Assembly: GCA_048593225.1 (NCBI GenBank) | Contig: CM109176.1 | Location: 477,435,429 to 477,499,428, forward strand | DNA: 64,000 bases | DNA from: Sarcophilus harrisii | Taxonomy: Eukaryota | Reading direction: 5' to 3' | Shown here: positions 25,960 to 58,490 of the stretch, in pieces | Position numbering within the stretch: position 1 is the stretch's first letter | How the letters are laid out: each line of letters begins with the position of its first letter | Notes under the pieces: model-generated | Told to the model about the DNA's origin: nothing | Seen by the model: only the letters and a program-made list of their open reading frames with translations | The model's database searches: none | Position numbers and translations under genes: made by a program

Positions 25960-28560
25960 GGAAGGTAGTAGAATTAAGAAGTATTGGGAAATGTTTTCCT
26001 CAGAGGATGGGATTTTAATTAGGTCTTGAAGAAAGCCAGGAAAGTCAAAAAGATTCCCAAAGATGAAGAGAAAGAACATTCCAGACATGGGGGACAGATA
26101 GAGAAAATACCTGGAGCCAAGAGATGGAATATTTTCACTGGGCTGAAGAGCTTGTGGTATAAAATAATCTGTAAAAAGACTGGAAAAGTAATGGGATAGG
26201 ATAAGGAGTTAGGATATGAAAGGCTTTGAATGATAAACAGAAGATTTTGTGTTTAATTCTGAAGGTGATAAGGATCCTTTGGAGTTTAGTGAATGGAGGG
26301 GTATGTATGACATGGTTGGATCTATACTTTAAGGATATCACTTTGGCAGCTGAAGGGAGGATATTTTGAAATGGGGAGAGGCTTGAGACAGGCAGAGCCA
26401 CCAGAAAAACAGGAATCAAGATGGTAAGATCTGGACTAGAGTAGTGGCAGTGTCAGAGAATAGATGGAGGCATATTTGAGCGATGTTGCAAAAGTGACAC
26501 CAACAGGCCTTGGCAACAGCCTGGATCCAGGGGTGAGAGACCGTGATGGGGCCAGGATAACTCCTAGGTGGTGAGCCTTAGGCACTGAGATGATAATGTT
26601 GTTCTCTACAGTAACAGCCAAGTAAGAGATAGAGAGGATTTAGGGGGAAAGACAATAAGCTCTGTTTCATGCATTTAAAATATCCTCTGAATGTTCATTT
26701 CAAGATGTCTGAAAGATAGTTAGAAATATGAAACTGTAGGTCAGTAGAGAAGTTAGCCAAGAAAAGGTAAATTTGAGAATCACCAACATAGAAATGCTCC
26801 ATGGCAACTGATGATATCACTGAGTGAAGTGCTACAGAGAAGAGAAGAAGGCTCACTCTGAGTGACACCTACAATTAGAGGGTATAAGAGAGTATATAGG
26901 GAGGGATAGTGATCCATAGTGTCAAAGGCTGCAGAGAAGTCACGGAGAATGAGGACTAAGAAAAGGCCATTACATTTGGTAACTAAGAGATTCTTAGTAA
27001 CTTTGGAGAGAGCAGTTTGAGTGGGATGATAAAGTCAGAAGTTCAGTTGTAAAATGTTAAGAAGTAAGCAAGAGGAGAGAAAATAGAAGCACTAGTGTAG
27101 ATGGTCTGGCCATAAAGCTAGAAGAGATATTATAGAATGATAGTGGGGATGGAAGGATCAAGTGAGGGTATTTTGGCGATGAGAGATACATAGATGTGTT
27201 TCCATGGAAGAGGGGAAAGAGCCAATAGTCAGAGAGATATTAAAGATAAATGAGAGAGTAAGGATGACAGAGGCCCAGTCTACTGAAGGGTGTGGGACAG
27301 AATGAGATCCCTTATGGAAAAGTGGGCTTTGATAAGGAACAAGGCTGACTTATCATGTGAAAGATGGGTGAAAGAGGAAACAGTAGTAGAAGGCATCTGA
27401 ATGAGATGAAATAAAGATGGGACAAAGGAACTCACAGCAAATAGCTTCAATTTTTTGGTAAAATATGAGGCAAGGTTCCCAGATAAGTGGGTGGGGGAAA
27501 AGGAGATCCCTGAGAAGTTTGAGAAGGGATGCAAAGATTTGGAAGAGCTGCTATGGGGAATGAGACAGTGAGTTGATTAAGAAGGTGCAGAAGGACAGCC
27601 TAGTAACAATGAGAGTCAAGTTGAGATTCTCTCCATTATCATTCAGCTGCAAGAGTGGGTGTCATCCAAGGCTGAGGCTTGTATGGTAGGGTACAATTGT
27701 TCGTAGGAAAAGGAAGCCAGGGACTAAAGAGAAAAAAACAGTGCAGAGCTGAACTGAGTTACCAAGGGATCAAAAATGTGGAAGAAAGGAGAGAGTGCCT
27801 AGTGTGTGGGGATGGCCTGGGAGAGAATCAAAGGATTGAAGGATTGGAGGTCATGATGTGAAAAGGAAATAAGGTTTGGTAAAGGAAGGCAGATGAAGAG
27901 GCAGGTGGTCAGAGAAGGATATTTCAGAATTCTTGAATATGAAGGTGGTGTATTTGTGGGTGATGGCAAGATCCAGAGTAAGCTCATCTAACAGAAGTGA
28001 GATTAAGAAGTAGGTCATGGGAAGTGAGTTGACTGAAGAACTGAGTGGTGAAGGTGTTTGATGGAGAATCAATATATGTGTTGAAGTCTCTTAGTAGGAG
28101 ACAAGAGTTTAAAGAGGAGAGAAAAATTGTGAGCCGGGTACCAAATTCTTTTAGGGAGGAAGGAGGGTGACTTGGATATCTGGACAAAGTCTACCTGGAT
28201 TTTGATAAGAGTGGGAGAGATAAATAACATGACCTTAGGGAGAGAACTTGAGAGTGGCAACAGGGAGCAAGGAACAGTCCAACTCCCCTGCCTTACCCAG
28301 TGAACTGAGAAGAATAAATAGAGGTGCAGCCTGTACTGGGTGGCCAGAGAGACAATCCAGAGGGCACAATGTAAGGGCTAAGTGGTGTTTGACTGGGATT
28401 TTGGGGTAGTAGGATTCAAGATGATCAGGAAAATGGGGTTCTGAATCATTGGTATGTGTAGGTCTAACCAGATGAAAAAATGTCCATCACTGAAGGCAGC
28501 ATTCTTCTTTTTATAAAAGAGGTTGTCTCCTGCCCAGGCAAGAGACAAGTACAATATGAA
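25960..28560. repeat. Unclassified interspersed repeat of about 2.6 kb, purine-rich on the plus strand. Related fragments lie at 9130–9300, 31200–31560 and 48280–48960.
   Basis: The copies share sequence with one another, e.g. 'gaggagtgaaggttgactcccaggttgtgaggatggtcat' versus 'gaggagtaaagggtgacttccaggttgcaaacctggatagc'. There is no intact ORF. The repeat family cannot be assigned from sequence alone. Confidence 0.5.
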
Positions 28561-30240: not shown

Positions 30241-32120
30241 CTTGCAAGAACATAAAATAAAATCTTTTCTTGGATCAGAGGAGTTCTTGGCAAAGCATCT
30301 TGTTTCTTATAGACAAACTTTTGCTTATGTATTAAAGGCCAAGAATTTGGCTAGGCAAGGGAAAAAACTTGCCTTGTGGTCTTTTCTTCTACTTCTCATT
30401 TTTAAGAAAGAACAAAACATTTGGAATTGAGGATTTTTTTTTGGGGGGGGTAGGTTGGCTATCATTACCAAACTCACAGAATTCCTGAAAATGTGACAGA
30501 ATGGTAGCCATCTACAAGGAAATTAAATAGGGAGTAATTCTTATTCTAAGAATGAAGCCTCTTGCAGAAAAACTGCTTTTGGAAATCAATAAAAATCCTG
30601 AAAGCATTAATTAGATGGGGCAATTCTAGCTCTGTGATTGAAAGAGCATGGTACTTGGGACAAGGAATTTCCTTCTGAAGAGATACTCGTTTCCTGTTAT
30701 GGGCCAGAATTCTAAACTTGAAACAAGGATGCTTACAAGGTTCTAAGTGGAATTGAGGAGACAATGGTTATCTAGTTTAGCATGGTTCAGTATGATTGAT
30801 TTAATCCTACAACAAATAATGATTTCCTAGTGATATAATTGGTTTATACTCAGTGTAGAGCATATAAGGTAGGAGCCTCAGCTAGATTGATTCAGAGATT
30901 CAGAGAGGCAGAGACAGAGAAGACAAAGGACTGGCGGCAGGAGCTTAAGCTTCCAGAACCAAGGAGAGAAATTTAATTCCATCTTCCAGGTGGTGGGCCT
31001 GGCCTCCTGCACTTCCCCCACTAAGACCAACGCCAGACTGAAAGGCTCTCCAGAAAGCTGCCCAGCCCCAGGAAGGAGATAATAAAGGATTTGTACTTTA
31101 ACACCTGGCTACACTTGTGGTGATTACTGAACTGAAAAGAAGGCTGCTTCTAGAGACCCCGAGAAAATTCAAACTGAGAACATTAGTTTCAGCCAAGGCT
31201 CAATGGAACACCTATTGAGAGGCTTTCTGTTTGTATCTGGAGATGCCTTCAAGTAGTCAATTTGAGTAAGGGAGGGTCTAGCACCTCATCCCATGAAGGA
31301 GATAAAAAATTGAGGAGTGAAGGTTGACTCCCAGGTTGTGAGGATGGTCATACCCTCCATAATACTGGAGAAGTTAGTAAGAGGGGAGGGTTGAGTGGGA
31401 AAGATAATGAGTTCAGTTTTGTACAGATGTTGAGTTTAAGATGTCCGTGTGGCATCCAATTTGAAATTTCTAATAGGCACTTGAAGATGTGAGACTGGAG
31501 GTCAGGAAAGAGTTAGGACTAGAAATAACAAACCAGAGAACTGATGAGATAAAAAAATTGAAAAAAATAGAGGAAGAGAAAAGTGGTCAGGTCAGAGCTT
31601 CAGTGGACATTTATAATTAATGGCAAATCCTGCATGAAGATCCAGCAAAGGAGACTAAGAAGGAATGATCAGACAGGTCCAAGCAAAACCAAGAAAGTAT
31701 GTTAAGGAGAAGAGGGTGATCAAAGAAACTACTCTCCTTATTGTAAGGAAGAAAGAGCAACTCAGTGGAGATTACATTTCAAGTCAGAAGCTAGAAGCAG
31801 AGAGGAACTCTGCAGCCTCGTGACCAGTGAAGCTGTGACATTTCATGACAGTGATCATGAAATCAGCAGGTTACCATTATGTAGTGGCTTTGTGAGATTC
31901 AAAAAAATAAAAAAAGCTGCCCCTGATGGGGTTACACACTTCTTATGTAGAAATACTACTAGTCTTACAACTCCAGAGATTATGTATTAAAGGTGAGGAG
32001 TTTGGCTAAGCAAGGAAAAGAATTTGCCTCTTGGTCTTTTCTTCTACTGCTCGTTTTCCAGAGAGTTGTCTCCAATTTAAACCTAAACTAGCTTATTCCC
32101 AAGAAATGCTAAAATGAGCC

Positions 32121-32156
<36 letters not shown>

Positions 32157-32159
32157 GTT

Positions 32160-32285
32160 GCTGAGGCAATTGGGATTAAGTGACTTGCCCAGAGTCACAC
32201 AGCTAGGAAGTCTTAAGTGTCTAAGACCAGATTTGAACTCAGGTTGGTGCTCTATCCACTGCCCCACCTACCTGCCCCAAGGCTC
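32160..32285 (-). mobile_element. tRNA-derived SINE flanked by long poly-T tracts, nested in the ERV.
   Basis: It contains 'gctgaggcaattgggattaagtgacttgcccagagtcacacagctaggaagtcttaagtgtctaagaccagatttgaactcaggttggtgctctatccactgccccacctacctgcccc'. Confidence 0.9.
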
Positions 32286-32319
<34 letters not shown>

Positions 32320-32994
32320 CTTTTTCTATTTATTCTTTAGTAAGCATACTCAGGTCAATTCTCTCAGACTGTACTGTTTGTGGAATCATAAAGAGACCAA
32401 AATTTCATAGTCTTAATGTTCTCTGAGACTTTTTTTTTTTTTTTTAAAGAAGATGCCTTTTTCTACTTAACAACATTTGGATCAATTGATATAAGTCTTG
32501 AGACTGTCTTGATTAGCATATTTTTAGATGAATCTGAGACCTGGTCAGTCTGGCAGATTCCACTTGGCTTTTCCTTGATCCCTCCTTGATTCCTTCCTGA
32601 TTCCTTCTCCTTACTTCCTGGATCCTGCCTCTGCTCCCCTGAGAATTTAAAAATTATGTTTTCCCAAGAACAAGTTGTTTATTTAGTATCACTGCATTGC
32701 ATAGTTGTATTTGCTTGAGCCTGTGAAGCTATTTTAACATAAATAAAATAGCAAACCTTTGTAATCTGTGATGGATATGTGACTTATTTCTTCAGGTCAA
32801 TTGAACTGTAGCTGAATCTCTAATATACTATTTTTATATAATATTCTTTTACAATTATGCTCTCCTAAATTTATTTCATATTACCACTCCTGGTACCTTT
32901 TTTTTTTTCCACTTCATTTGGATGATGACCGCTGGTCATATGTGTTCCACATTTCCCATTAGTGTTAGAATTTTGGGGAAAATGTGTTCCAGTC

Positions 32995-33285
32995 TCTGAA
33001 GGAAATAGTTTATTAAAGGGCAGCTGAGTGACATAGTAGATAAAGCACCAAGGTCTGGACTTAAGATCTGAGTTCAAATCCAACCTTAGACACTTATTAC
33101 AGACACTGTGTAGCCCTAGGCAAGTCACTTAACTGCTGTCAACCTCATATTCCTCATTTATAAAATGAGAAGAATAGAAATACCTACTTCCCAAGACTGT
33201 TGTGAGGATCAAATGAAATAATTGTAAAGTGCTTAGCATAGAGCCTGACAAGTAGTAAAGTAACATGTAGATGTTACCTATTATT
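32995..33285 (+). mobile_element. MIR-type SINE (tRNA-like head plus MIR core).
   Basis: It contains 'gggcagctgagtgacatagtagataaagcaccaaggtctggacttaagatctgagttcaaatcc...tcatttataaaatgagaag...ttgtgaggatcaaatgaaataattgtaaagtgcttagcatag'. Confidence 0.85.
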
Positions 33286-33689
33286 TTTATCATCATTATT
33301 GTTGTTGTTATTGTTGCTATTTTTCTTATACTCTTTTGTTAAATGCTTTTGCTTTGAATTAATTGTATCTTCTAGTTAACTAATAAATGTAAACATATCA
33401 ATGTGATGTTTTGAGCTATGATGTTGAGTAGTTAATTTGGGATGTGCCAGGACTTCTATCTCCTACTCAATTGCAAAGAGAATGGCGCTTTTGGGTTATA
33501 GACATTAAGGATTGTTTCTATTCTATCCCTCCAGATAAGGAGGTTAGGAGGATATGAAAAGATTTGTCTTTTCAGTGCCCAGTGTTAACTTAGCTGAGCC
33601 CTATAAAAGATATGGACAGTTTTGCCACAGGGAATGAAAATTAGTCCTACTATGTGTCAAATGTATGTTGCTGCTGCTCTTACTCCAGT

Positions 33690-34335
33690 AAGAAAAACAT
33701 TTCCTTGAAGGGATGCCCACCAATTGGAGAACGGCTGAATAAATTGTGGTATATGAATGCTATGGAATACTATTGTTCTGTAAGAAATGACCAGCAGGAT
33801 GAATACAGAGAGGCTTGGAGAGACATACATGAACTGATGCTGAGTGAAATGAGCAGAACCAGGAGATCATTATATACTTCAACAACAGTACTACATGATG
33901 ATCAATTCTGATGGTCATGGCTATATTCAACAATGAGAGGATCCAAAATAGTTCCAACTGATCTGTAATGAACAGAACCAGCTACATCCAGAGAAAGAAC
34001 ACTGGGAAATGAGTATGGACCACAACATAACATTTCCACTCTTTCTGTTAATGTTTGCTTGCATTTTTTTTCTTCTCAAGTTATTTTTACCTTCTTTCTA
34101 AATCTGATTGTTCCTGTGCAACAAGACAACTGTATAAATATGTATACATATATTGTATTTAACATATATTTTAACATATTTAACATGTATGGGACTACCT
34201 GCCATCTAGGGGAGGAGGTGGGAGGAAGGAGGGGAAAAGTTGGAACAGGAGGTTTTGCAAGGGTCAATATTGAAAAATTACCCATGCATATGTTTTATAT
34301 ATAAAAAGCTATAATAAAAAAAATTAAAAAAAAGC
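33690..34335 (+). mobile_element. L1 3' end nested inside the ERV.
   Basis: It contains '...GERLNKLWYMNAMEYYCSVRNDQQDEYREAWRDIHELMLSEMSRTRRSLYTSTTVLHDDQF' plus the typical L1 3'UTR ending 'ataaaaagctataataaaaaaaattaaaaaaaag'. Confidence 0.9.
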
Positions 34336-34339
34336 ATTT

Positions 34340-34560
34340 CCAAAAGTTATGTTATTACATTACATGGATGATATACTGGGGTGTGCACCTGAGGAGCAAA
34401 TATTAGAAGCATGTTTACATAAGACCATAGGAACACTAAGGAATTACAAATTGCATATAGCTCCAGAAAAAATTCAAAGGCACACTCCTTTTCAATATTT
34501 AGGATATGAAGTATATCCTAAGGTATTGGAACACATGGGAGCCACCTGATAGTGGCTGCT
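34340..34560 (+). pseudogene. ERV pol reverse-transcriptase fragment carrying the YMDD active-site motif.
   Basis: The ORF 34349..34549 reads 'MLLHYMDDILGCAPEEQILEACLHKTIGTLRNYKLHIAPEKIQRHTPFQYLGYEV', the retroviral RT 'YMDD ... QYLGY' signature. Confidence 0.8.
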
Positions 34561-35189
34561 GGAGATCCAACCCAGAATGGATCTTATCTTGTAAGAGGAT
34601 GACACAAGGAGATTAAGAGGCAATTGCTATTCTCTGATGTCTCTGACTGAGAGGCCGCTGCATTGTCTGACCTCTCTCCTCCTTCCTCTGCCTCCAATTT
34701 ATCTCATTCCCAGTCCACAACACCGTGTCAGCAAAGACTGCCCTGCAACTCCTTTAGATGTTATGATCCACAGCTGTGGAGGCTCTTGGAGAATTGACCT
34801 GTCCTGTAACACTAAGGTGCTTATAGTACAAAAACTTTCTTTAAGAACAGAAAAGATGGCCTTCTAACCATGTTAACCATAATTCTTTATTTCAAGAAGC
34901 CCAAGAATCTTGTTCTAAATAACATCAGGCTCCTCAAGCTTTATGTTTGCGATTTGGGATAACAAAAGAGGAAGCTAGGAGCATAGTAAAAGCCTCTACA
35001 GCTTGCTTTCCTTTCCACGTTCCTATGCTCCCTCCAGGAAAGAATGCTTGTGGTTTGAGACCCAGTGAAATTTAGCAAATAGATGTGACTCGTTATAAAT
35101 CTTTTGGCTGTCTGTCTTTTATCCATGTTGTAGTAGACACCTTTTTTCAGGATTCACTTTTGCAATACTAGCAGCAAAAGAAATGACCT

Positions 35190-35445
35190 GAGTGGTCACT
35201 AAGTTCCTTAGACAAGCTTTTGCAATTATGGGTGTGCCACAAGAAATAAGAACAGATAATGGACCTGCATATACTTTTAAACATTTTGTACACTTTTGTG
35301 CACCGTATAAGATTTTACATACCACTGACATACCTTTTAATCCTCAAGGACAGACAATAGTAGAGAGGAAAAACAGAAACATTAAGACCCTCCTCCAAAA
35401 ACACAAGAAAGGGGGAGCCACAGGTAACCTAGAGAACTTCTAAAT
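35190..35445 (+). pseudogene. ERV pol integrase catalytic-core fragment.
   Basis: The ORF 35192..35443 reads '...GVPQEIRTDNGPAYTFKHFVHFCAPYKILHTTDIPFNPQGQTIVERKNRNIKTLL', the DDE integrase core ('TDNGP...NPQ.QG.VER.N'). Confidence 0.85.
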
Positions 35446-35769
35446 CTAGCTCTTTATACTATTACCTTCTTGATTTTTGACAAAGATGCACTGGCTCCAG
35501 TAGACAGGTTTTATAACCCACCAGAAAGTCAGTGTCCAGTGCGAGCAGCTCCACTTTCTGTAGATAATCACCAGGTGATGTAAAGAGACCCAGAAAGTGG
35601 TGAATGGAAGGGACCAGATAGGTTAACTGTTTGGGGGAGAGGGTTTGCTTGTATCTCTATAGATGGAGAAGGAATAAGATGGGTGCCATCCTTGTCCATC
35701 AGAGAGAGACAGAGTAGACCCTTGAAACGAAGGAGAAGACCCAAGAAACATCAGGTTCCATCTCTGATA

Positions 35770-36230
35770 ATGTGTGCCACTGAAAGAGCCTGGCTGTTAA
35801 CCTATATGTATGGCTATTGACTGATGAACATCAAAAATTGTCAATGAGACTGCTGCAGGACTTCAAAACCTGCAGGAATCATTGGATTCCCTGACATATG
35901 AAGTAATGGACAATAGATTGGTTTTGGACTATCTCTTGGCTGCTGAAGGAGGTGTATGTATGATTGTTATTTATATACTCTCCTTTTAGGACTTATGGAC
36001 ACATATAATTCCTCATGTTGCTTCATGTTTTTTGTAACATCACTACTAGCCTGTGTTATATTACTATGTGCTTGTGTAATACCTCCTATGCTGATGGATT
36101 TATGTATACTTGTTTCAAGTAAGACCCCTCAGCCCAGAAGAAACCTGCTAACAATATCTGGTTTGACTCCCCATTTCCCTTTGGTGTTCTCACCTCCCTT
36201 CCTGAGAAGTCAAGGGAGGGTATGACCACC
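35770..36230 (+). pseudogene. ERV env transmembrane subunit remnant with an immunosuppressive-domain-like motif.
   Basis: The translation includes '...NRLVLDYLLAAEGGVCMI...' and the ORF 35956..36225 reads '...DTYNSSCCFMF...LLACVILLCACVI', a gamma-type TM 'LDLL.AE.GG.C' plus a CC motif plus a membrane span. Confidence 0.7.
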
Positions 36231-37475
36231 TGTGTTCTAAAATAAAAGAAAACAGGAGATGTAGAGGGCTGGAACTCTGGAGAAATATACTTGAAACAAG
36301 GATACTTACAACAAGTGTTAACTTAGTGTGATTGTTGAGATGATGGTTCTCTAGTTTACATATACTTAGTATTTAGTATGGTGATGTAATGGTTCTACAA
36401 TTCACACATACTAAGAATGCTGTAATGATGTAATTGTAATAGGGTATTTAAGGGCTGAGAGGATTGGAAATAGAGGCATTCCATCTTTGACCATCCTCCT
36501 GGTGGCTTTCCTGCTTACTTCATTCCTTCACTAAGACCAAGACTGGTCCCATAATCCTCCAGAGCTAGTGTAGACACTACAATTTTGGGCTACCCATATT
36601 AGTTCTTCAGACAAAAATATCCTTACAACAAATTCAGTAGAACTGAACAGTGTTTTGCAGTTAATCAGAACTTAATAATTTGTTGAATTCTAATCAAGGT
36701 ATCCTATTTTTACAGGAAAGTCTAGGAGTCATTGATCAGCACAGAATGGTTTACCTTGCATTGGTTCAGCTAACATAAAATGATTACCCTTCAAAAATCA
36801 ATACAAATTTCCTAGCAGGTAATCCTGCCATCAAGGTATTTTCTTCAGATCCTGAATGTTATCCTAGTAGACCATCATATTCTATGATATGGGTTCCATG
36901 CTAGTATTCTAGCTTTTATAAAGCTGAGGCAGCCAAATATACAAAGACAATAATTAACAATAGATAACACCCCCCAGGTTGTCTTTCTAATTACCCACCA
37001 TCATAGGAATGAACTGTCATATTTTAGTAGGTTCTATTAATAGGTACTATTATGCCCACTGGAGCCATGGAGATAGTCTATCACTTCTGCAATGGTCAAG
37101 AAATTAGCCTCAATCTTCAGGTCTACTAACTTCCTCACTAGAGGAGAAAAATATTTGCATTATCTGTCTTAAAAGAATGTGTTTAAGAAAAGACTTTTAG
37201 CTGGAAAACTCTACTGGAATGTGAGATGTTGTAATTTTCTATTAATAAAACAAAGGTATATAATTATTAATAATAAATCTATGCTTTGTAATATTCTAGA
37301 AGATAGGTTTTCTAGTAAAATGTCAAAATGTTAGTTTTCCCAATTCACCACATAAAGTGCATGTCAAATTTAATAACAATATAATTAAATATAAATATAT
37401 TTAATAGCCCTATTTGCTTATTTTATCATTTAGATAATTAAAATAATTTAATTACTTATTAATAATAATACTTAC

Positions 37476-37571: not shown

Positions 37572-38407
37572 CTAGGTTGGAACATTTTAAATAAAAATAT
37601 TATATTAAACAGATGTATTTTGTATTTAAGGTGTAAGAATAATTCACATAGACATACATATTATGTTCTTTTAAAATTCTGGTTCTTATTACTTCTTTAA
37701 TGAAAATTCTAGAAAACTGTTTTTCCTTTAGATAAAGAAGTATGATCTCATGTTCAGAAAGAACATTGGACTTGAAATCAGAACATATGGGTTAAAGCTT
37801 TGGCTTTCCCACATTCTTCAATATGTCATAATCTCTCAGCTTTGGTTTCCTCATCTATAAAATGGGCACAATACTATCTGTTTTAAGAATAAAATAAGAA
37901 TGTATGTGAAAATGTTTTCTAAACTGTAAGTTTCCATGCAAAAAAAAAAAGTTTTCTTTCAGATTTTTCACTTTCATAAGGTGTCTCTGTCACCCACCTA
38001 ACAGATCTGATAAATCATATAGAAAAGAATAGAAAAGACTTTGATAAAAATGAAAGAAGGAAAGCTGCCTAATTTCAAAAAAAGACTAAAAAAATCTTGA
38101 AAATAATTTTTCAGTTCATCAATCCAAAAGTCTAATAATTTAGTATTAAGGTTAATGTAAGATCTCTCTCCCTAAAAGTAACCGTTGCCTCCCTGGAGTT
38201 TGGCTTTCCCACATTCTTCAATATGTATGTCAACATACATAACAGCTCTAAATTCTCTCATTATATAATCTTCTTTAAGACAAATTTTTTTCACCCTAAA
38301 AAATACATTTATTTCTTTATTCTGATTCCCTAACTTCACATATTGCTGGCTACATCAGTTTAAGATTTTCTAAAAATCAAGGCATACTTTCTATAGAAAG
38401 AACAAAC

Positions 38408-38488
38408 CTCATGTTTTGTTTCATCCTCATGAAGTATTCCATCTTCATAATCTCTGATGATAGCTCTAGCTGTTAGCTTGTGAAGCAT
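38408..38488 (-). CDS. Coding exon translating MLHKLTARAIIRDYEDGILHEDETKHE, phase 0 to 0.
   Basis: The acceptor is 'tttgctcctaaaatgtag|ATG' and the donor is 'CATGAG|gtttgt'. Together with the previous exon, 'YGFIPHCTQ|MLHKLTARAI' aligns to VWA5A 'FGIGEGTSTSLIKGIARASGG' and to ITIH 'LARRIHEDSDS'. Confidence 0.55.
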
Positions 38489-47900: not shown

Positions 47901-50900
47901 AACACTTTGTTCCCTCATTGACTTAAGAGATTCTTCTGTCTTGTTACTTTTTTACATGGTATAGACTCCTCTTCCACTAAAATTCTCTTCTGATGATCAG
48001 CCATGATGTAGAGATAACTCTGGACTCTTGAAAATTGTGCGTGCTAAACTATACTAACCTTCCTCTTGAGCTGGAAATGCTTAAAATATGAGCCTAATGC
48101 TGGACTCAATAACACCAAGCATTAAGCCCTTCCAAATATGCTAGGATCTCTGCTGGATACTAGTGATACAAAAAATAAAATTGAGATAATCCCTGCCCTC
48201 AAGGAGTTTATATTTTACCAACGGATATAAGTAAAGACAAAATTAAAACAAAATAAATACAAAATAATTAGAAGAGTATTAACCACTTGGGGAATCAGGA
48301 AAAACCTGCTGAAGAATGTGGAACTTGAACTGAGCACTGAAGGGAGCTAGTGGCTCAAAGAGGTGACAGTAAAGAGGGAGAATATTCCAGACATTTGCTG
48401 GAGCAGCAAGGATAACAGAATGTTGTGAAAGAGGTATAGTAAGTGCATCAATGGAGCTTGAGTGTGTAGGGCAAGGAAGGGAATGATGGGGCACCAATCT
48501 ACCTATGTGTGCCAGTGCGAGAGAAAAAAGCCAGATTGTGGAATGGGGGTTTATATTAGTTCTGGTGGTAGTGGTAGAGAGCCACTGAAGATTCTTAAAC
48601 AGAAGAGTGATAGTTAGGATCTGTGCTTTAGAAATATTAATTTGATGGCTTTATGGAAGATGAATTAGAAAAGGAAGAGACTAGAGGAAGGGAGAAAAAT
48701 TAGAAAGCTCTTGAAATGGTCCCTGAGTAATGAGGCCCTGAATGAGAGGAACTCTGAAATGAACACAGAGAAAGGAACAGATGTGAGAGATACTGAGAAG
48801 GCAAATAAAAATGAGGAGTAAAGGGTGACTTCCAGGTTGCAAACCTGGATAGCTACAAGAATTCTGGTGTATTTGACAAAGGCAGGGAAATTAGAAGGAA
48901 GGGTAGGTTTAGAGAATGTAATGAAATTTGAGAAGTCCAGTCAGTGTTGGATATTTATTTAATAAGGATCAACACAGTTAAATGTAAAGATGTTCATCAG
49001 TGGAAGGTGAGCAAACAACTGATTTTTTGGCCATTTTTTTTTGACAACTCAGGATGACTATCTACCAAACAGATGAGGGGATGTGATCAGTGTCAGTGGA
49101 AAGAATTCTTACACCAAAGAAGTTAAGGATCTATAAAGGACTGAAGTTATAACTCCTTTCTCTCTATTAGACTACAAGACCTATGAGGCTAAGAACCACA
49201 GTTTATCTAAACTTTATTATCTTCTCCAGGTCTTAGCACAGTATAGAAAATTTAATAAATAAACATATATAGAATAGTTCGTTAATACATATTTGTGGAA
49301 CTAAATGGAATCTTTAGAAAAATGTCAGAAAACAAAGTTAAAAGTGACAGACTACATGAATGACATTTGTGAACATTTTGTAAGCATTTGTGGAATAAAA
49401 TTATTAAAGGACTAAAATTCTATTATTACTTAGATATTAGAACCCAGAGATCCATTTCACTGACTATTGTACAAGATTTCAAAACATATGTAATTATAAT
49501 ATTTCATATTCCCATAAGCATACTTGAAAAAAAGAATGAAAAGGCGAAGAAACTTGCCTGTTTTTTCCAACTATATTTAGATTTTGTGTTAAAGTATTCA
49601 AATGCTCCAGCACCGTACTGGGACAAAGTCCTTAGGATATGACGATTTGCTGTGGACCTGGTCAAATTTTAAAGATTTGTTTCAAAGATTTATGAAAATA
49701 ATTTCAAAAGTCTTTACAAATTAAAATGTCAACAAAAAAGTATGTGGTACTAACAGATAGTGCCATGCCCCCTGAATGGTTTTGGGATTTATAATTCAAA
49801 AGAAATAAAATAAAATATTAGAGAGAACATATGTAATTCAAATTCCTCAGACTAATGGATGGGCTGATCTTTTTCAACAAAGGAATTGAAAAGTAGTGAT
49901 AACAGATGGTCTTTTAGATCATATTTCTCTCTAAATAAGGACTAGTTTCTTTTCAACCAGAAGTAGAGGTGCAAATGAAATGATAATTGCCACTTACACC
50001 TACTCCCAAATAAGGCCTATGCTGAACCCAAATACCAAGGAAAAACAAACACCTTTTCCATCCCTCAATTTCTACAACCCTACTCATTCCTAATCTTCTC
50101 TAACCTATCTGACTTTTTAGTCTCCTTTGCTGATCTGCCATCTATTCTATGCTTTCTACTTAAAGAACTATCTCTGAGGCTCTTCTTTCTATAGTCTTTC
50201 CCCGGGGTATTTCCTCAGCTCTTACCGGTTCTTTTATGTTTTGGAAGTTACCTGTATAATCCATCTATTCTGTCCTAATTCCCTAATTTCCCTCCTACAT
50301 CACCTGTTGGCCTGTTGGCCACACTTCCTCCCCCTCCATTTTCCATTTACATAATGATTTTTCTAACACTTACCCAATGCCACATGTAAATAAGCGGGTG
50401 TGTCTAACATTTCTTTTTACAATCTGCAATGTCAGGCTCTTGTTCTGAATATGCCCATCAGACAGAAGAAGTATGCTGCGCATCCCTTGAGAAGGGTAGA
50501 GTAAGTTTAAAAAACGAAGGGTTTTCCAGAAGTCAGTATTTCCCATGGTAGGTGTAGCAGACTAGAAAAAAATTAAAAGAAAGTAGATTTTATAAACACT
50601 GTAAATTTGCTACTCAATATTTCTTTTTTGGAGCATGTTTCCTTTTTTAGAGAAGGGATCCCTAATTTTTTCATGAAAGATTTTTTAAAAAATGACATAT
50701 TTGCTACTTTGCCTGGGAATAAGAGGTAAACTAATATCATTCCATTTCTGCATTATGAACTTACAAAAAGTAGATTCTCACATTTCCTTTTAGACAACTA
50801 GAATATACAAGTATTTTCTTTGTGCCTAAATTAAATGAAAATGTTGTTTTGTTGTTTGTTTTTAATAGTTCATCATACACTTAACTTTAAATCTCCACAA

Positions 50901-53389: not shown

Positions 53390-53925
53390 GCACTGATCCT
53401 TTCTCTTGTATTATGGGCCAGAACTCTGAAACAAGGATTCTTCCAAGGTGTTAAGTCAGTGGAATTGATAAAGAAAATGATTATTTAGTTTAGCATGGTG
53501 CTCTAAGTTCAGTATGATTGAGTTAATGTTACAACAAATAATGATTTCCTAGTGATATAATGATTGGTTTATACTCAGTGTAGAGCATATAAGCTGGGAG
53601 CCTCAGGCAGATTCATTCAGAGACAGCTAGGGAAGACAAGAGGACTGGAAGCTGAAGCACAAGCCCTTGGACTCAGACTCATTCATTCCATGTCACACTC
53701 TGTGGTGGCAGGGCTCTCTTCCTGCATTTTCTCCACCGAAACCAAAACTTTGGAAGGCCTTTAAGAAAGCTAACCGGGCCCCAGGAAAGGAGACAAGACT
53801 TTGAAAGAGGATTGATAAAGAATTTGGACTTTAACCCCTGGCTACTCTTGTGGTGATTAATCTGCTGAAAAGAAGGCTGCCCAGAGACTTGCAGAAAACC
53901 GATCCAAGTGAGTGTTCCCCACCTG
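53390..53925 (+). mobile_element. Solo LTR of the same family as the provirus LTRs at 30.7 and 36.3 kb.
   Basis: An alignable run, 'gggccagaactctgaaacaaggattcttccaaggtg...gtttatactcagtgtagagcatataag...ggatttggactttaacccctggctactcttgtggtgattaatctgctgaaaagaaggctgcc', parallels 30700–31200. There is no internal retroviral sequence alongside it. Confidence 0.75.
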
Positions 53926-54504
53926 GTGTAAAAGGTTTTTACATATCTTTTAATAGCATAAATTCTTCAAACAAAATTATAATTTCACAATGTGTCCAGG
54001 GGTTTTTAATCTTTTTTTATGTCACGCACCTTCTGGCAGTCTGGAGAAACCTATCGAGTCCTTCTTTGTATAATATTTTTAAATAATGGAAGGAAACACT
54101 AAATTTAAATTAGAAGTCAGTAAAAATAAAAATGATTTTTCTTTTTGCCATTTAAGTTCATAGGCCTTTAAATTAATCTACAGACCCAAGTTAAAAATCC
54201 CTGTGGTAAAGACTCAGAGAATCCCAGAGTTGGAATTGGTCATCTAATCCACCTATTCCTGGACAGGAGTTTTTTCTACAATATACTCCACATACAACAT
54301 ACTTCTGTTTCCAGTTAAGATCTCCAATAACAAAATACTCACTATCTCTTGAGGTACCACACTATATTATTTTCTGACAACTTAACACTTGGGCAATTTT
54401 CCCTTGTGAGTTTTCTTGTCAAGGTAATTCATATCCTTTTTATTCTTTTATCTTTTAAAGTTAATTTTAGAATATCACACTGTCAGAAATAACAGAAAAC
54501 TTAC

Positions 54505-54700
54505 TTGTGCCAAACTTGATAATATTTACTTTTTGCTTCTCTTGGACAAGAGACAGAGCATGTAAGGCAATTTGCTTTGCTTGCAGTAATATTGAACCCT
54601 CCATAGAATTGGAACAATCCAGACAAATAATAACTTCATTAGTATAGGCCTTTTCAGGAAGTGCAGTGCTAAAATCTGGATGGAACACCAGCATGCAGGC
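54505..54700 (-). CDS. Coding exon for the N-terminal half of a VWA domain with a MIDAS DxSxS motif. It translates ACMLVFHPDFSTALPEKAYTNEVIICLDCSNSMEGSILLQAKQIALHALSLVQEKQKVNIIKFGT, phase 0 to 1.
   Basis: The acceptor is 'tccttcttccttctag|GCC' and the donor is 'ACAA|gtaagt' (consensus). The translation aligns to VWA5A 'GEFIFLMDRSGSM...AKETLILLLKSL...YFNIYGFGS'. Confidence 0.8.
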
Positions 54701-56329: not shown

Positions 56330-56530
56330 ATATAATATTATATATATATATTATATATTAATATATAATATAATATATATATAGAGAATAATAACTGAGA
56401 ATAATTGAGAATAACACTGAGAATAATATAATATAACATATAATAATAATATAATATATATAATATATAATAATATAATAAATAATAAATAAATTAAATT
56501 TAAATTTAATTTAAATAAATTTAAAATAAG
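56330..56530. repeat. AT-rich compound microsatellite of (ATATA/TAATA/AAT)n, about 200 bp.
   Basis: Directly visible: 'tataatattatatatatatattatatattaatatataatataatatatatata...aataataaataaattaaatttaaatttaatttaaataaa'. Confidence 0.95.
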
Positions 56531-56544
56531 AGGCATTTCAAGGG

Positions 56545-58490
56545 AAAATCAGAAACTTTATGAGCAAAACTACAAAACACTTTCCACACAAATTAAGCCT
56601 GATCTAACCAAGTGGAAAAATATTAAATGCTCTTGGATTGGACGAGCAAATATAATAAAGATGACAATACTACCTAAACCAATCTATTTATTTAGCGCTA
56701 TACCAATCAGACTCCCCAAAAACTATTTTAATGACCTAGAAAAAATAACAACAAAGTTCATATGGAAAAACAAAAGGTCAAGAATTTCAAGGGAATTAAT
56801 GAAAAAAAAATCAAATGAAGGTGGCCTAGCTGTACCAGATCTAAAATTATATCATAAAGCAGCAGTTACCAAAACCATCTGGTATTGGCTAAGAAATAGA
56901 CTAGTTGATCAATGGAATAGGTTAGGTTCAAAGGATAAAACAGCCAATAACTTTAACAATCTAGTGTCTGACAAACCCAAAGACCCCAGTTTTTGGGATA
57001 AGAACGCATTATTTGACAAAAATTGCTGGGGAAATTGGAAATTAGTATGGCAGAAACTAGGCATTGATCCACACTTAACACCGTACACCAAGATAAGGTC
57101 AAAATGGGTTCATGACCTAGACATAAAGAATGAGATTATAAATGAATTAGAAGAGCATAGGATAGTTTACCTCTCAGACCTGTGGAAGAGAAAGGAAATT
57201 ATGACCAAAGAAAAACTAGAGATCACTATTGACTACAAAATAGAAAATTTTGATTATATCAAATTGAAAAGTTTTTGTACAAACAAAACTAATGCAGACA
57301 AGATTAGAATGGAAACAATAAACTGGGAAAACATTTTTATAGTCAAAGGTTCTGATAAAGGCCTCATTTCCAAAATATATAGAGAATTGACTCTAATTTA
57401 TAAGAAATCAAGCCATTCTCCTACTGATAAATGGTCAAAGGATATGAATAGACAATTCTCAGGCGAAGAAATTGAAACTATTTCTAGCCATATGAAAATA
57501 TGCTCCAAATCATTATTAATCAGAGAAATGCAAATTAAGACAACTCTGAGATACCACTACACACCTGTCAGATTGGCTAAGATGACAGGAAAAGATAATG
57601 ATGATTGTTGGAGGGGATGTGGGAAAACTGGGACACTGATACATTGTTGGTGGAATTGTGAATACATCCAACCATTTTGGAGAGTAGTTCGGAACTATGC
57701 TCAAAAAGTTATCAAACTGTGCATACTCTTTGATCCAGCAGTGTTTCTACTGGGCTTATACCCCAAGGAGATACTAAAGAAGGGAAAGGGACCTGTGTGT
57801 GCCAAAATGTTTGTGGCAGCCCTTTTTGTAGTAGCTAGAAACTGGAAAATGAATGGATGCCCATCAATTGGAGAATGGTTGAGTAAACTGTGGTATATGA
57901 ATATTATGGAATATTATTGTTCCATAAGAAATGACCAGCAGGATGAATACAGAGAGGCTTGGAGAGACTTACATGAACTGATGCTGAATGAAATGAGCTT
58001 TATATACCTTTATATACCAGGAGATCATTATATACCTCAACAACGACACTGTATGAGGATATATTCTGATGGAAGTGGATTTCTTCAACAAAGAGATCTA
58101 ACTCAATTTCAATTGATTAAGAATGGACAGAAGCAGCTACACCCAAAGAAAGAATACTGGGAAATGAATGTAAACTGCTTGCATTTTTGTTTTTCTTCCC
58201 GAGTTATTTTTACCTTCTGAATCCAATTCTTCCTGTGCAACAAGAGAACTGTTCGATTCTGCACACATATATTGTATGTAGGATACACTGTGACATATTT
58301 AACTTGTATAGGACTGCTTGCCATCTGGGTGGGTGGGGGGGTGAAAGGAGGGAGGGGAAAAGTCGGAACAGAAGTGAGTGCAAGGGATAATGTTGTAAAA
58401 AAATTACCCTGGCATGGGTTCTGTCAATAAAAAGTTATAATAAAAAATAAATTAATTAATTTTTTTAAAAAAGGGGAAAAAAAAAGAAAA
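56545..58490 (+). mobile_element. 5'-truncated L1 with a long intact stretch of ORF2 (519-aa ORF covering the RT C-terminus and Cys-rich domain) and a 3'UTR. It is relatively young.
   Basis: The ORF 56661..58220 reads '...[89 protein letters not shown]...EWLSKLWYMNIMEYYCSIRNDQQDEYREAWRDLHELML'. A 3'UTR with an A-rich end runs 58220–58490. Confidence 0.9.

Follow-up and report, generated by a model that had tools for sequence, protein, structure and literature searches.

The question raised by this locus is whether the retroviral sequence in an intron of a VIT-VWA gene of Sarcophilus harrisii represents a single provirus bounded by its own two long terminal repeats (LTRs), and to which class of endogenous retrovirus (ERV) it belongs. 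The window analyzed here, a stretch of 64,000 nt from contig CM109176.1, is AT-rich vertebrate DNA (GC 0.34) crowded with L1 copies and with tRNA-type and MIR-type copies of short interspersed elements (SINEs). A preliminary description of the window had placed a gamma-like, LTR-bracketed provirus at 30690-36600. While a real ERV remnant was found there, antisense to the gene, intronic and carrying a nested L1, neither the gamma-like class nor the bracketing by LTRs was borne out. Retroviral coding sequence was located on the + strand at 33.4-36.7 kb, and conceptual translations of 33.4-35.75 kb matched four Pfam families in retroviral order and all on one strand: RVT_1 (split in two), Integrase_Zn, rve and IN_DBD_C. 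We consider it probable that 33393-36659 is a 5'-truncated, internally deleted remnant of 3.3 kb consisting of pol, env, polypurine tract and 3' LTR sequence, and that the LTR lying upstream of it is a separate element, probably a solo LTR, rather than that the locus is one complete gamma-like provirus.

Three LTRs bear on this reading. These units, termed A, B and C, and the polypurine tract (PPT) that precedes B are as follows:

30695 to 31191, + strand: LTR A, grouped in one family with LTR C.
36244 to 36259, + strand: polypurine tract AAAAGAAAACAGGAGA, read from the sequence, abutting LTR B on its 5' side.
36260 to 36659, + strand: LTR B, the remnant's own 3' LTR, with TG…CA ends and a TATTTAAG box; a distant relative of A and C.
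53407 to 53921, + strand: LTR C, a putative solo LTR of the A/C family, situated in an intron farther upstream in the host gene, 549 bp from the host exon at 54470-54700 (- strand).

A provirus acquires its two LTRs as identical copies at integration, and each must be the nearest relative of the other. This was not observed for A and B. Comparison of A with C by nhmmer gave 214 bits (E 6e-65) over almost the full length, with 86% local and 76% global identity, while A and B gave 24 bits (E 3e-7), 54-58% global identity and about 86% identity over 70 nt (local z about 18). Between B and C there was no nhmmer match at E<=1, with a global identity of 57-60% and a local z of 15. When columns with a base in all three LTRs were counted in alignments from three MAFFT modes, 95-103 informative sites united A and C against B, compared with 18-22 uniting A and B against C and 27-35 uniting B and C against A. 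The resulting tree, ((A,C),B), contradicts the identity of A and B at a single integration, so that A and B are not the LTRs of one provirus and the locus retains only part of a provirus, with a single LTR belonging to it. The LTR units described at about 30690-31200 and 36270-36600 are real, but A groups with C (214 versus 24 bits) and not with B, its supposed partner. Pairwise alignment of the LTRs had been proposed as a means of dating the insertion; it was strong for A and C and significant only locally for A and B, and since A and B are not a pair, an age taken from their divergence would be meaningless. LTRs that lie close together in the same orientation do not necessarily form a pair.

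A search for target-site duplications (TSDs) flanking 30690/36600 and 53390/53925 had been proposed. No TSD of 4-6 bp was found for A through B, for A alone or for C alone, with some slop allowed at the boundaries, and only chance 4-5-mers inside the LTR ends were seen; decay could have erased a TSD, and at the present level of decay its absence is uninformative. With respect to a primer-binding site (PBS), the 20-30 nt following A and C, read by eye, contained no TGG…tRNA-like site and resembled no familiar tRNA 3' end. No retroviral coding sequence adjoins A or C. The third unit, which the preliminary description had called a related solo LTR at 53390-53925, is thus related and is free of flanking retroviral genes, but it shows no TSD. 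A fourth, 5'-truncated fragment of the A/C family, comprising the 3' 130 nt or so of the LTR and preceded by a long (GA)n microsatellite, was noted at 22860-22995 (+ strand), so that the A/C family is simply frequent in the region.

Three recognizable elements occupy part of the 2.2 kb that separate LTR A from the first retroviral coding sequence:

31311 to 31901, + strand: diverged interspersed repeat of about 590 nt, not ERV-specific, also present at 26534-27190 (nhmmer E 3e-9, 78% in the alignment).
32117 to 32290, - strand: SINE of tRNA type whose tail, seen as a T-run on the + strand, is on the left side; further copies lie at 6.97, 24.8, 25.5, 25.8, 38.55 and 42.3 kb.
33019 to 33300, + strand: SINE of presumed MIR/CORE type, similar to copies at 25.5-25.9 kb and 62.9 kb.

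No Pfam match to gag, pro, dUTPase or any other retroviral domain was obtained in 31196-33400 even at E<=5, although pol farther on was still recognized at 1e-34 to 1e-54; a PBS after a 5' LTR and the gag and pro genes that should follow it are thus missing. The older repeat begins about 120 nt past LTR A. The GC content of the unique AT-rich segments 32317-33018 (0.33) and 33301-33392 (0.23) is host-like, compared with 0.38-0.46 in the ERV parts. Because no gag, pro or PBS follows it, and because the older repeat and host-like AT-rich DNA do, LTR A was judged most likely to be independent, and probably a solo LTR, rather than the 5' LTR of the remnant. A continuation of the 26.5-kb copy of the repeat across LTR A, which would show that A had inserted into the repeat, was looked for and the alignment was not significant. 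The repeat itself is purine-rich and its copies at 31311-31901 and 26534-27190 (+ strand), with a partial one at 48805-48879, are diverged, with about 78% identity in aligned columns and many indels. The SINE type of the window is one which we take to be marsupial. Both SINEs had been reported at 32.16 and 33.0 kb as insertions into the provirus, and both are present; their nesting within a provirus is unproven because the surrounding DNA has no demonstrable retroviral origin, so the layering of ages that had been drawn from the insertions holds for the L1 only.

The coding part of the remnant, including this L1, was resolved into the following segments:

33393 to 33704, + strand: first part of the reverse transcriptase (RT), fingers and palm, reading …WVIDIKDCFYSIPP…PVRKTF, in three frames joined by two frameshifts (Pfam RVT_1; HERV-K RT 7sr6, E 4.4e-34).
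33705 to 34329, + strand: 3' end of an L1 (C-terminus of open reading frame (ORF) 2, 3' untranslated region and A-rich tail; 625 nt) lying in the RT gene, one of multiple L1 copies in the window.
34343 to 34525, + strand: second part of the RT, palm, reading LLHYMDDILG…EKIQRHTPFQYLGYEV (Pfam RVT_1, E 1.2e-8; PDB 7sr6 alignment).
34526 to 34877, + strand: segment of 352 nt, GC 0.46, with no assigned homology, standing in place of the roughly 1.1 kb expected for RT thumb, connection and RNase H.
34878 to 35754, + strand: integrase in which zinc-finger, DDE-core and C-terminal domains all persist, although four in-frame stops and two frameshifts disrupt it (Pfam Integrase_Zn, rve and IN_DBD_C).

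The order is that of a retrovirus, an RT with a YxDD palm being followed by an integrase in which HHCC, DDE core and C-terminal domain succeed one another. Both pol motifs named in the preliminary description were recovered: YMDDIL, reported at 34.35 kb, at 34358-34375 in the sequence matching RVT_1, and TDNGPAYT…NPQGQTIVER, reported at 35.2 kb, within 35192-35440. The L1 3' end reported at 33.7-34.3 kb was likewise confirmed as an insertion into pol. It is flanked by a duplication, AAAAACATTTCC (33693-33704) and AAAAGCATTTCC (34330-34341), which matches at 11 of 12 positions, and excision of the L1 together with one duplicate restores the RT reading frame exactly (…PVRKTFPKVMLLHYMDD…). This proves the insertion of the L1 into the RT and, because excision restores the frame, shows that the L1 arrived later than the retrovirus; the nesting is a clean relative-age marker.

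With respect to the class of pol, the best PDB matches of the integrase were the intasome chains 7usf and 3jca of mouse mammary tumor virus (MMTV), with E about 2e-54 over residues 6-279 (274 aligned), followed by delta- and alpharetroviral integrases at 1e-33 to 1e-28. The best PDB match of the RT was HERV-K RT 7sr6 (E 4.4e-34, 119-121 bits); the other RT matches among the 60 best PDB hits were all lentiviral, at 1e-19 to 1e-17 with HIV at about 1e-19, and no RT of murine leukemia virus (MLV) or XMRV was among those 60. Direct comparison with a manually entered segment of Moloney MLV (MoMLV) RT gave 29% identity and 54 bits. The Pfam models matched by the zinc and C-terminal domains of the integrase, PF02022 and PF00552, are ones which we take to be models of alpha-, beta-, delta- and lentiviral integrases. 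In the ranking of similarity scores over PDB chains, which is not a phylogeny, RT and integrase were therefore both closest to betaretroviruses and not to the MLV type, and pol is best assigned on sequence similarity to class II (beta-like), with only the env stub of gamma type. Further marks of class II, namely dUTPase, a G-patch in pro, PBS-Lys and a 6-bp TSD, belong to regions which this copy has lost.

The closest available protein to the integrase was P0001 (metaclust), at 76% identity, compared with about 38-52% for HERV-K integrase. No contig is recorded for P0001, whose probable origin is the host DNA in a sample associated with a marsupial. The next-best homologues, P0002, P0003 and P0005 from ENA metagenome assemblies, resemble HERV-K(HML-2) pol fragments, and human contamination of those assemblies is the probable source. 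The HERV-K RNase H part of P0002 gave no alignment to the remnant. RT thumb and RNase H sequence was also sought in 34500-34900, where PDB gave nothing at E<=10 and none of the + frames matched Pfam or PDB; the RT thumb, connection and RNase H (about 1.1 kb) are lost from the remnant. The GC-richer segment at 34526-34877 that occupies their place may be unrecognizable ERV sequence or filler DNA from a deletion event.

Downstream of the integrase, one further coding remnant was found:

35820 to 36150, + strand: remnant of the env transmembrane subunit (TM), with a heptad region and an immunosuppressive-domain-like region, then a hydrophobic anchor at 36010-36150 in another frame (PDB, Pfam).

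The TM peptide, …LDYLLAAEGGVCMI at 35828-35968, matched PDB structures of syncytin-2/HERV-FRD (2.5e-5), Mason-Pfizer monkey virus (MPMV; 4jf3, 4.3e-5), HERV-T and MoMLV p15E (1e-3). Against Pfam TLV_coat it scored 21.2 bits, just below the cut-off of 22.5, at model positions 424-476 of 560. Only 65 nt separate the end of the integrase (35754) from the heptad region, so that the surface subunit (SU) and the fusion peptide are deleted. An env TM had been described at 35.8-36.2 kb with a CC motif and a hydrophobic anchor, and the peptide and the anchor are indeed there. The CC dipeptide, at 36016-36021 (SSCCFMFF, from 36010), is located some 20 codons past GGVC and in a different reading frame, so a CX6CC motif cannot be confirmed. 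The TM, PPT and LTR follow the integrase on the same strand, such that one element carries a beta-like pol and, on its 3' side, a gamma-type TM, and a TG…CA LTR is preceded by a PPT. Because pol is beta-like while only the TM stub is gamma-type, the element appears to be a class II, type-D-like ERV. The label gamma-like does not hold for pol, for which the best matches were HERV-K and MMTV and MoMLV RT reached just 54 bits; it applies to the TM only. Motif reading by itself mislabels chimeric ERVs of this kind, since a gamma-type TM is not equivalent to a gamma-like provirus.

ERVs that combine beta gag and pol with gamma env, TvERV, MEBrv 1 and MEBrv 2 among them, have been documented and are common in marsupials (PMC11334065). 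In its beta-like pol and gamma-type TM, its marsupial-type repeat surroundings and its LTR length (about 400-500 bp), the remnant is like TvERV of the brushtail possum and MEBrv 1 and MEBrv 2 of Dasyuridae, a likeness of architecture and not one of sequence comparison (PMC11334065). Those elements are near-complete proviruses of 7-9.5 kb, some of which retain intact ORFs as well as identical LTRs (PMC11334065), whereas the remnant has kept just 3.3 kb of its 3' part and is devoid of gag, pro, RNase H and SU. MPMV and the simian type D retroviruses have the same chimeric architecture, the remnant TM aligning to 4jf3 (E 4e-5) and its pol being of beta type, but they are exogenous, intact primate viruses and the resemblance does not go beyond the family level. 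MMTV and HERV-K(HML-2) provided the best structural matches for integrase and RT, and share YMDDIL and TDNGPAYT…NPQGQ.IVER with the remnant; unlike it, they carry a beta-type env without a gamma-type immunosuppressive-domain TM. Conversely, in its heptad and immunosuppressive-like segment the TM of the remnant is similar to MLV p15E, the syncytins and HERV-T, while the RT differs from that of MLV and the class I ERVs, as the low score against the manually entered MoMLV segment indicates.

The history that we propose for the locus is one of truncation and not of rearrangement, and apart from the L1 insertion its order of events is inferred. A retrovirus with beta-like gag-pro-pol and a gamma-type env would have entered the germ line on the + strand, antisense to the VIT-VWA gene. 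The 5' half (5' LTR, leader, gag, pro and the N-terminus of the RT), the RNase H region and the SU would have been lost by deletions, and a later L1 insertion split the RT, with point decay presumably following. LTR A would have inserted separately, as a member of a related LTR family that also left LTR C at 53.4 kb and the 22.9-kb fragment. The antisense orientation would have caused the least disturbance to host splicing and polyadenylation.

A single gamma-like provirus at 30690-36600, with A as its 5' LTR and B as its 3' LTR, eroded and then invaded by two SINEs and an L1, would account for two LTR-like units of the same orientation flanking pol and env remnants, for the gamma-type TM and for the significant local similarity of A and B (z about 18; nhmmer E 3e-7). 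We regard it as very unlikely, since some 98 informative sites join A to C and some 21 join A to B, pol is beta-like, no PBS follows A and no TSD is shared, the 2.2 kb past A hold no gag or pro although pol is easily recognized elsewhere, and an older non-ERV repeat begins only 120 nt past A. Recombination or deletion-joining after integration, between proviruses of the A/C and B families or between a provirus and a nearby solo LTR, could instead have left A as the surviving 5' LTR of one element and the pol-env-LTR B block as part of another. Such a chimera fits the common orientation, close spacing and distant homology of the two LTR families, the unexplained filler segments and an 86-nt direct repeat that hints at local rearrangement; yet no retroviral leader, PBS or gag adjoins A, the DNA past A consists of an older repeat of dispersed type and of AT-rich sequence with a host-like composition, and the simpler history of two insertions covers all observations. 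It is in our view unlikely, though less so than the single provirus. That the retroviral similarities are due to chance, or to a non-retroviral LTR retrotransposon, has nothing to recommend it beyond the degraded state of the element and, against E values of 1e-34 to 1e-54 to retroviral RT and integrase structures and a retroviral TM, PPT and LTR in the correct order, its probability is negligible.

Several observations weigh against a truncated remnant with an independent LTR A. LTR A has the same orientation as the remnant, lies 2.2 kb upstream of it and has detectable homology to B, which is possibly more than coincidence; neither A alone nor C alone has a recognizable TSD, so that both are putative solo LTRs; the segments at 32317-33018, 33301-33392 and 34526-34877 could be unrecognizable ERV sequence; and scans of metagenome contigs with the integrase protein and with 24-mers of the A/C LTRs found no copies of either family. 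There is also a small chance that the pol-env-LTR B block belongs to an undescribed marsupial type-D-like lineage (its nearest protein, at 76%, being unnamed), or that the mismatch of A and B arose by ectopic recombination of two related ERV lineages, which would have deleted gag-pro together with host DNA. LTR A and the adjacent old repeat lie between the two copies of the 86-nt direct repeat, at 30325-30410 and 31980-32065 (83-85% identity, nhmmer E 3e-12), which nothing else in the window matches; it may reflect a local rearrangement or a low-copy repeat, and no larger colinear duplication was found between 22-30 kb and 30-37 kb.

The truncated remnant favored here is an ordinary, known kind of ERV in a badly decayed state. 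The locus carries no intact ORF and nothing in it is functional today; a search of 29.5-37.5 kb against Rfam matched no family, and there is no indication of regulatory co-option or of an effect of the ERV on the host gene. The locus matters little beyond its correct annotation.

The host gene was traced on the - strand through ORFs with AG/GT splice contexts, which matched Pfam VWA, VWA_3, VWA_2 and, weakly, the end of VIT:

63.4 kb, - strand: host exon, end of VIT (Pfam).
62.0 and 61.4 kb, - strand: host exons.
54.47-54.70 kb, - strand: host exon with the motif DCSNSM, resembling a metal-ion-dependent adhesion site (MIDAS); homologous single-exon ORFs occur in other assemblies.
50.4-50.6 and 49.5-49.7 kb, - strand: host exons, VWA (Pfam).
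42.7-42.9, 42.4-42.55 and 38.36-38.49 kb, - strand: host exons.

Only unnamed single-exon ORFs in the protein database matched the gene. The remnant and LTR A lie in the intron between the exon at 38363-38488 and the next downstream exon (at the latest the large one at about 18.07-17.06 kb), antisense to the gene, and LTR C lies in the intron between the 54.5- and 50.5-kb exons. The placement of the retroviral sequence antisense in an intron of a VIT-VWA gene, as the preliminary description had it, thus stands, with the remnant on the + strand and the host exons, with their splice contexts and VWA and VIT matches, on the - strand. A bias of intronic ERVs towards the antisense orientation reflects selection against splice and poly(A) signals in the sense orientation.

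The second longest ORF of the window, in which the mean is 15 codons, is a proline-rich one of 365 codons at 18133-17039 (- strand), with an AG acceptor and an AAG|gtaaag donor. It had no homologue in the protein database and is presumably a large, fast-evolving exon of the VIT-VWA gene. The longest ORF, of 575 codons at 56493-58217 (+ strand), contained no Pfam domain; its sequence identifies it as the C-terminal half of L1 ORF2 (CWRGCG…HCWWNC), which suggests a comparatively young L1 copy in an intron of the host gene.

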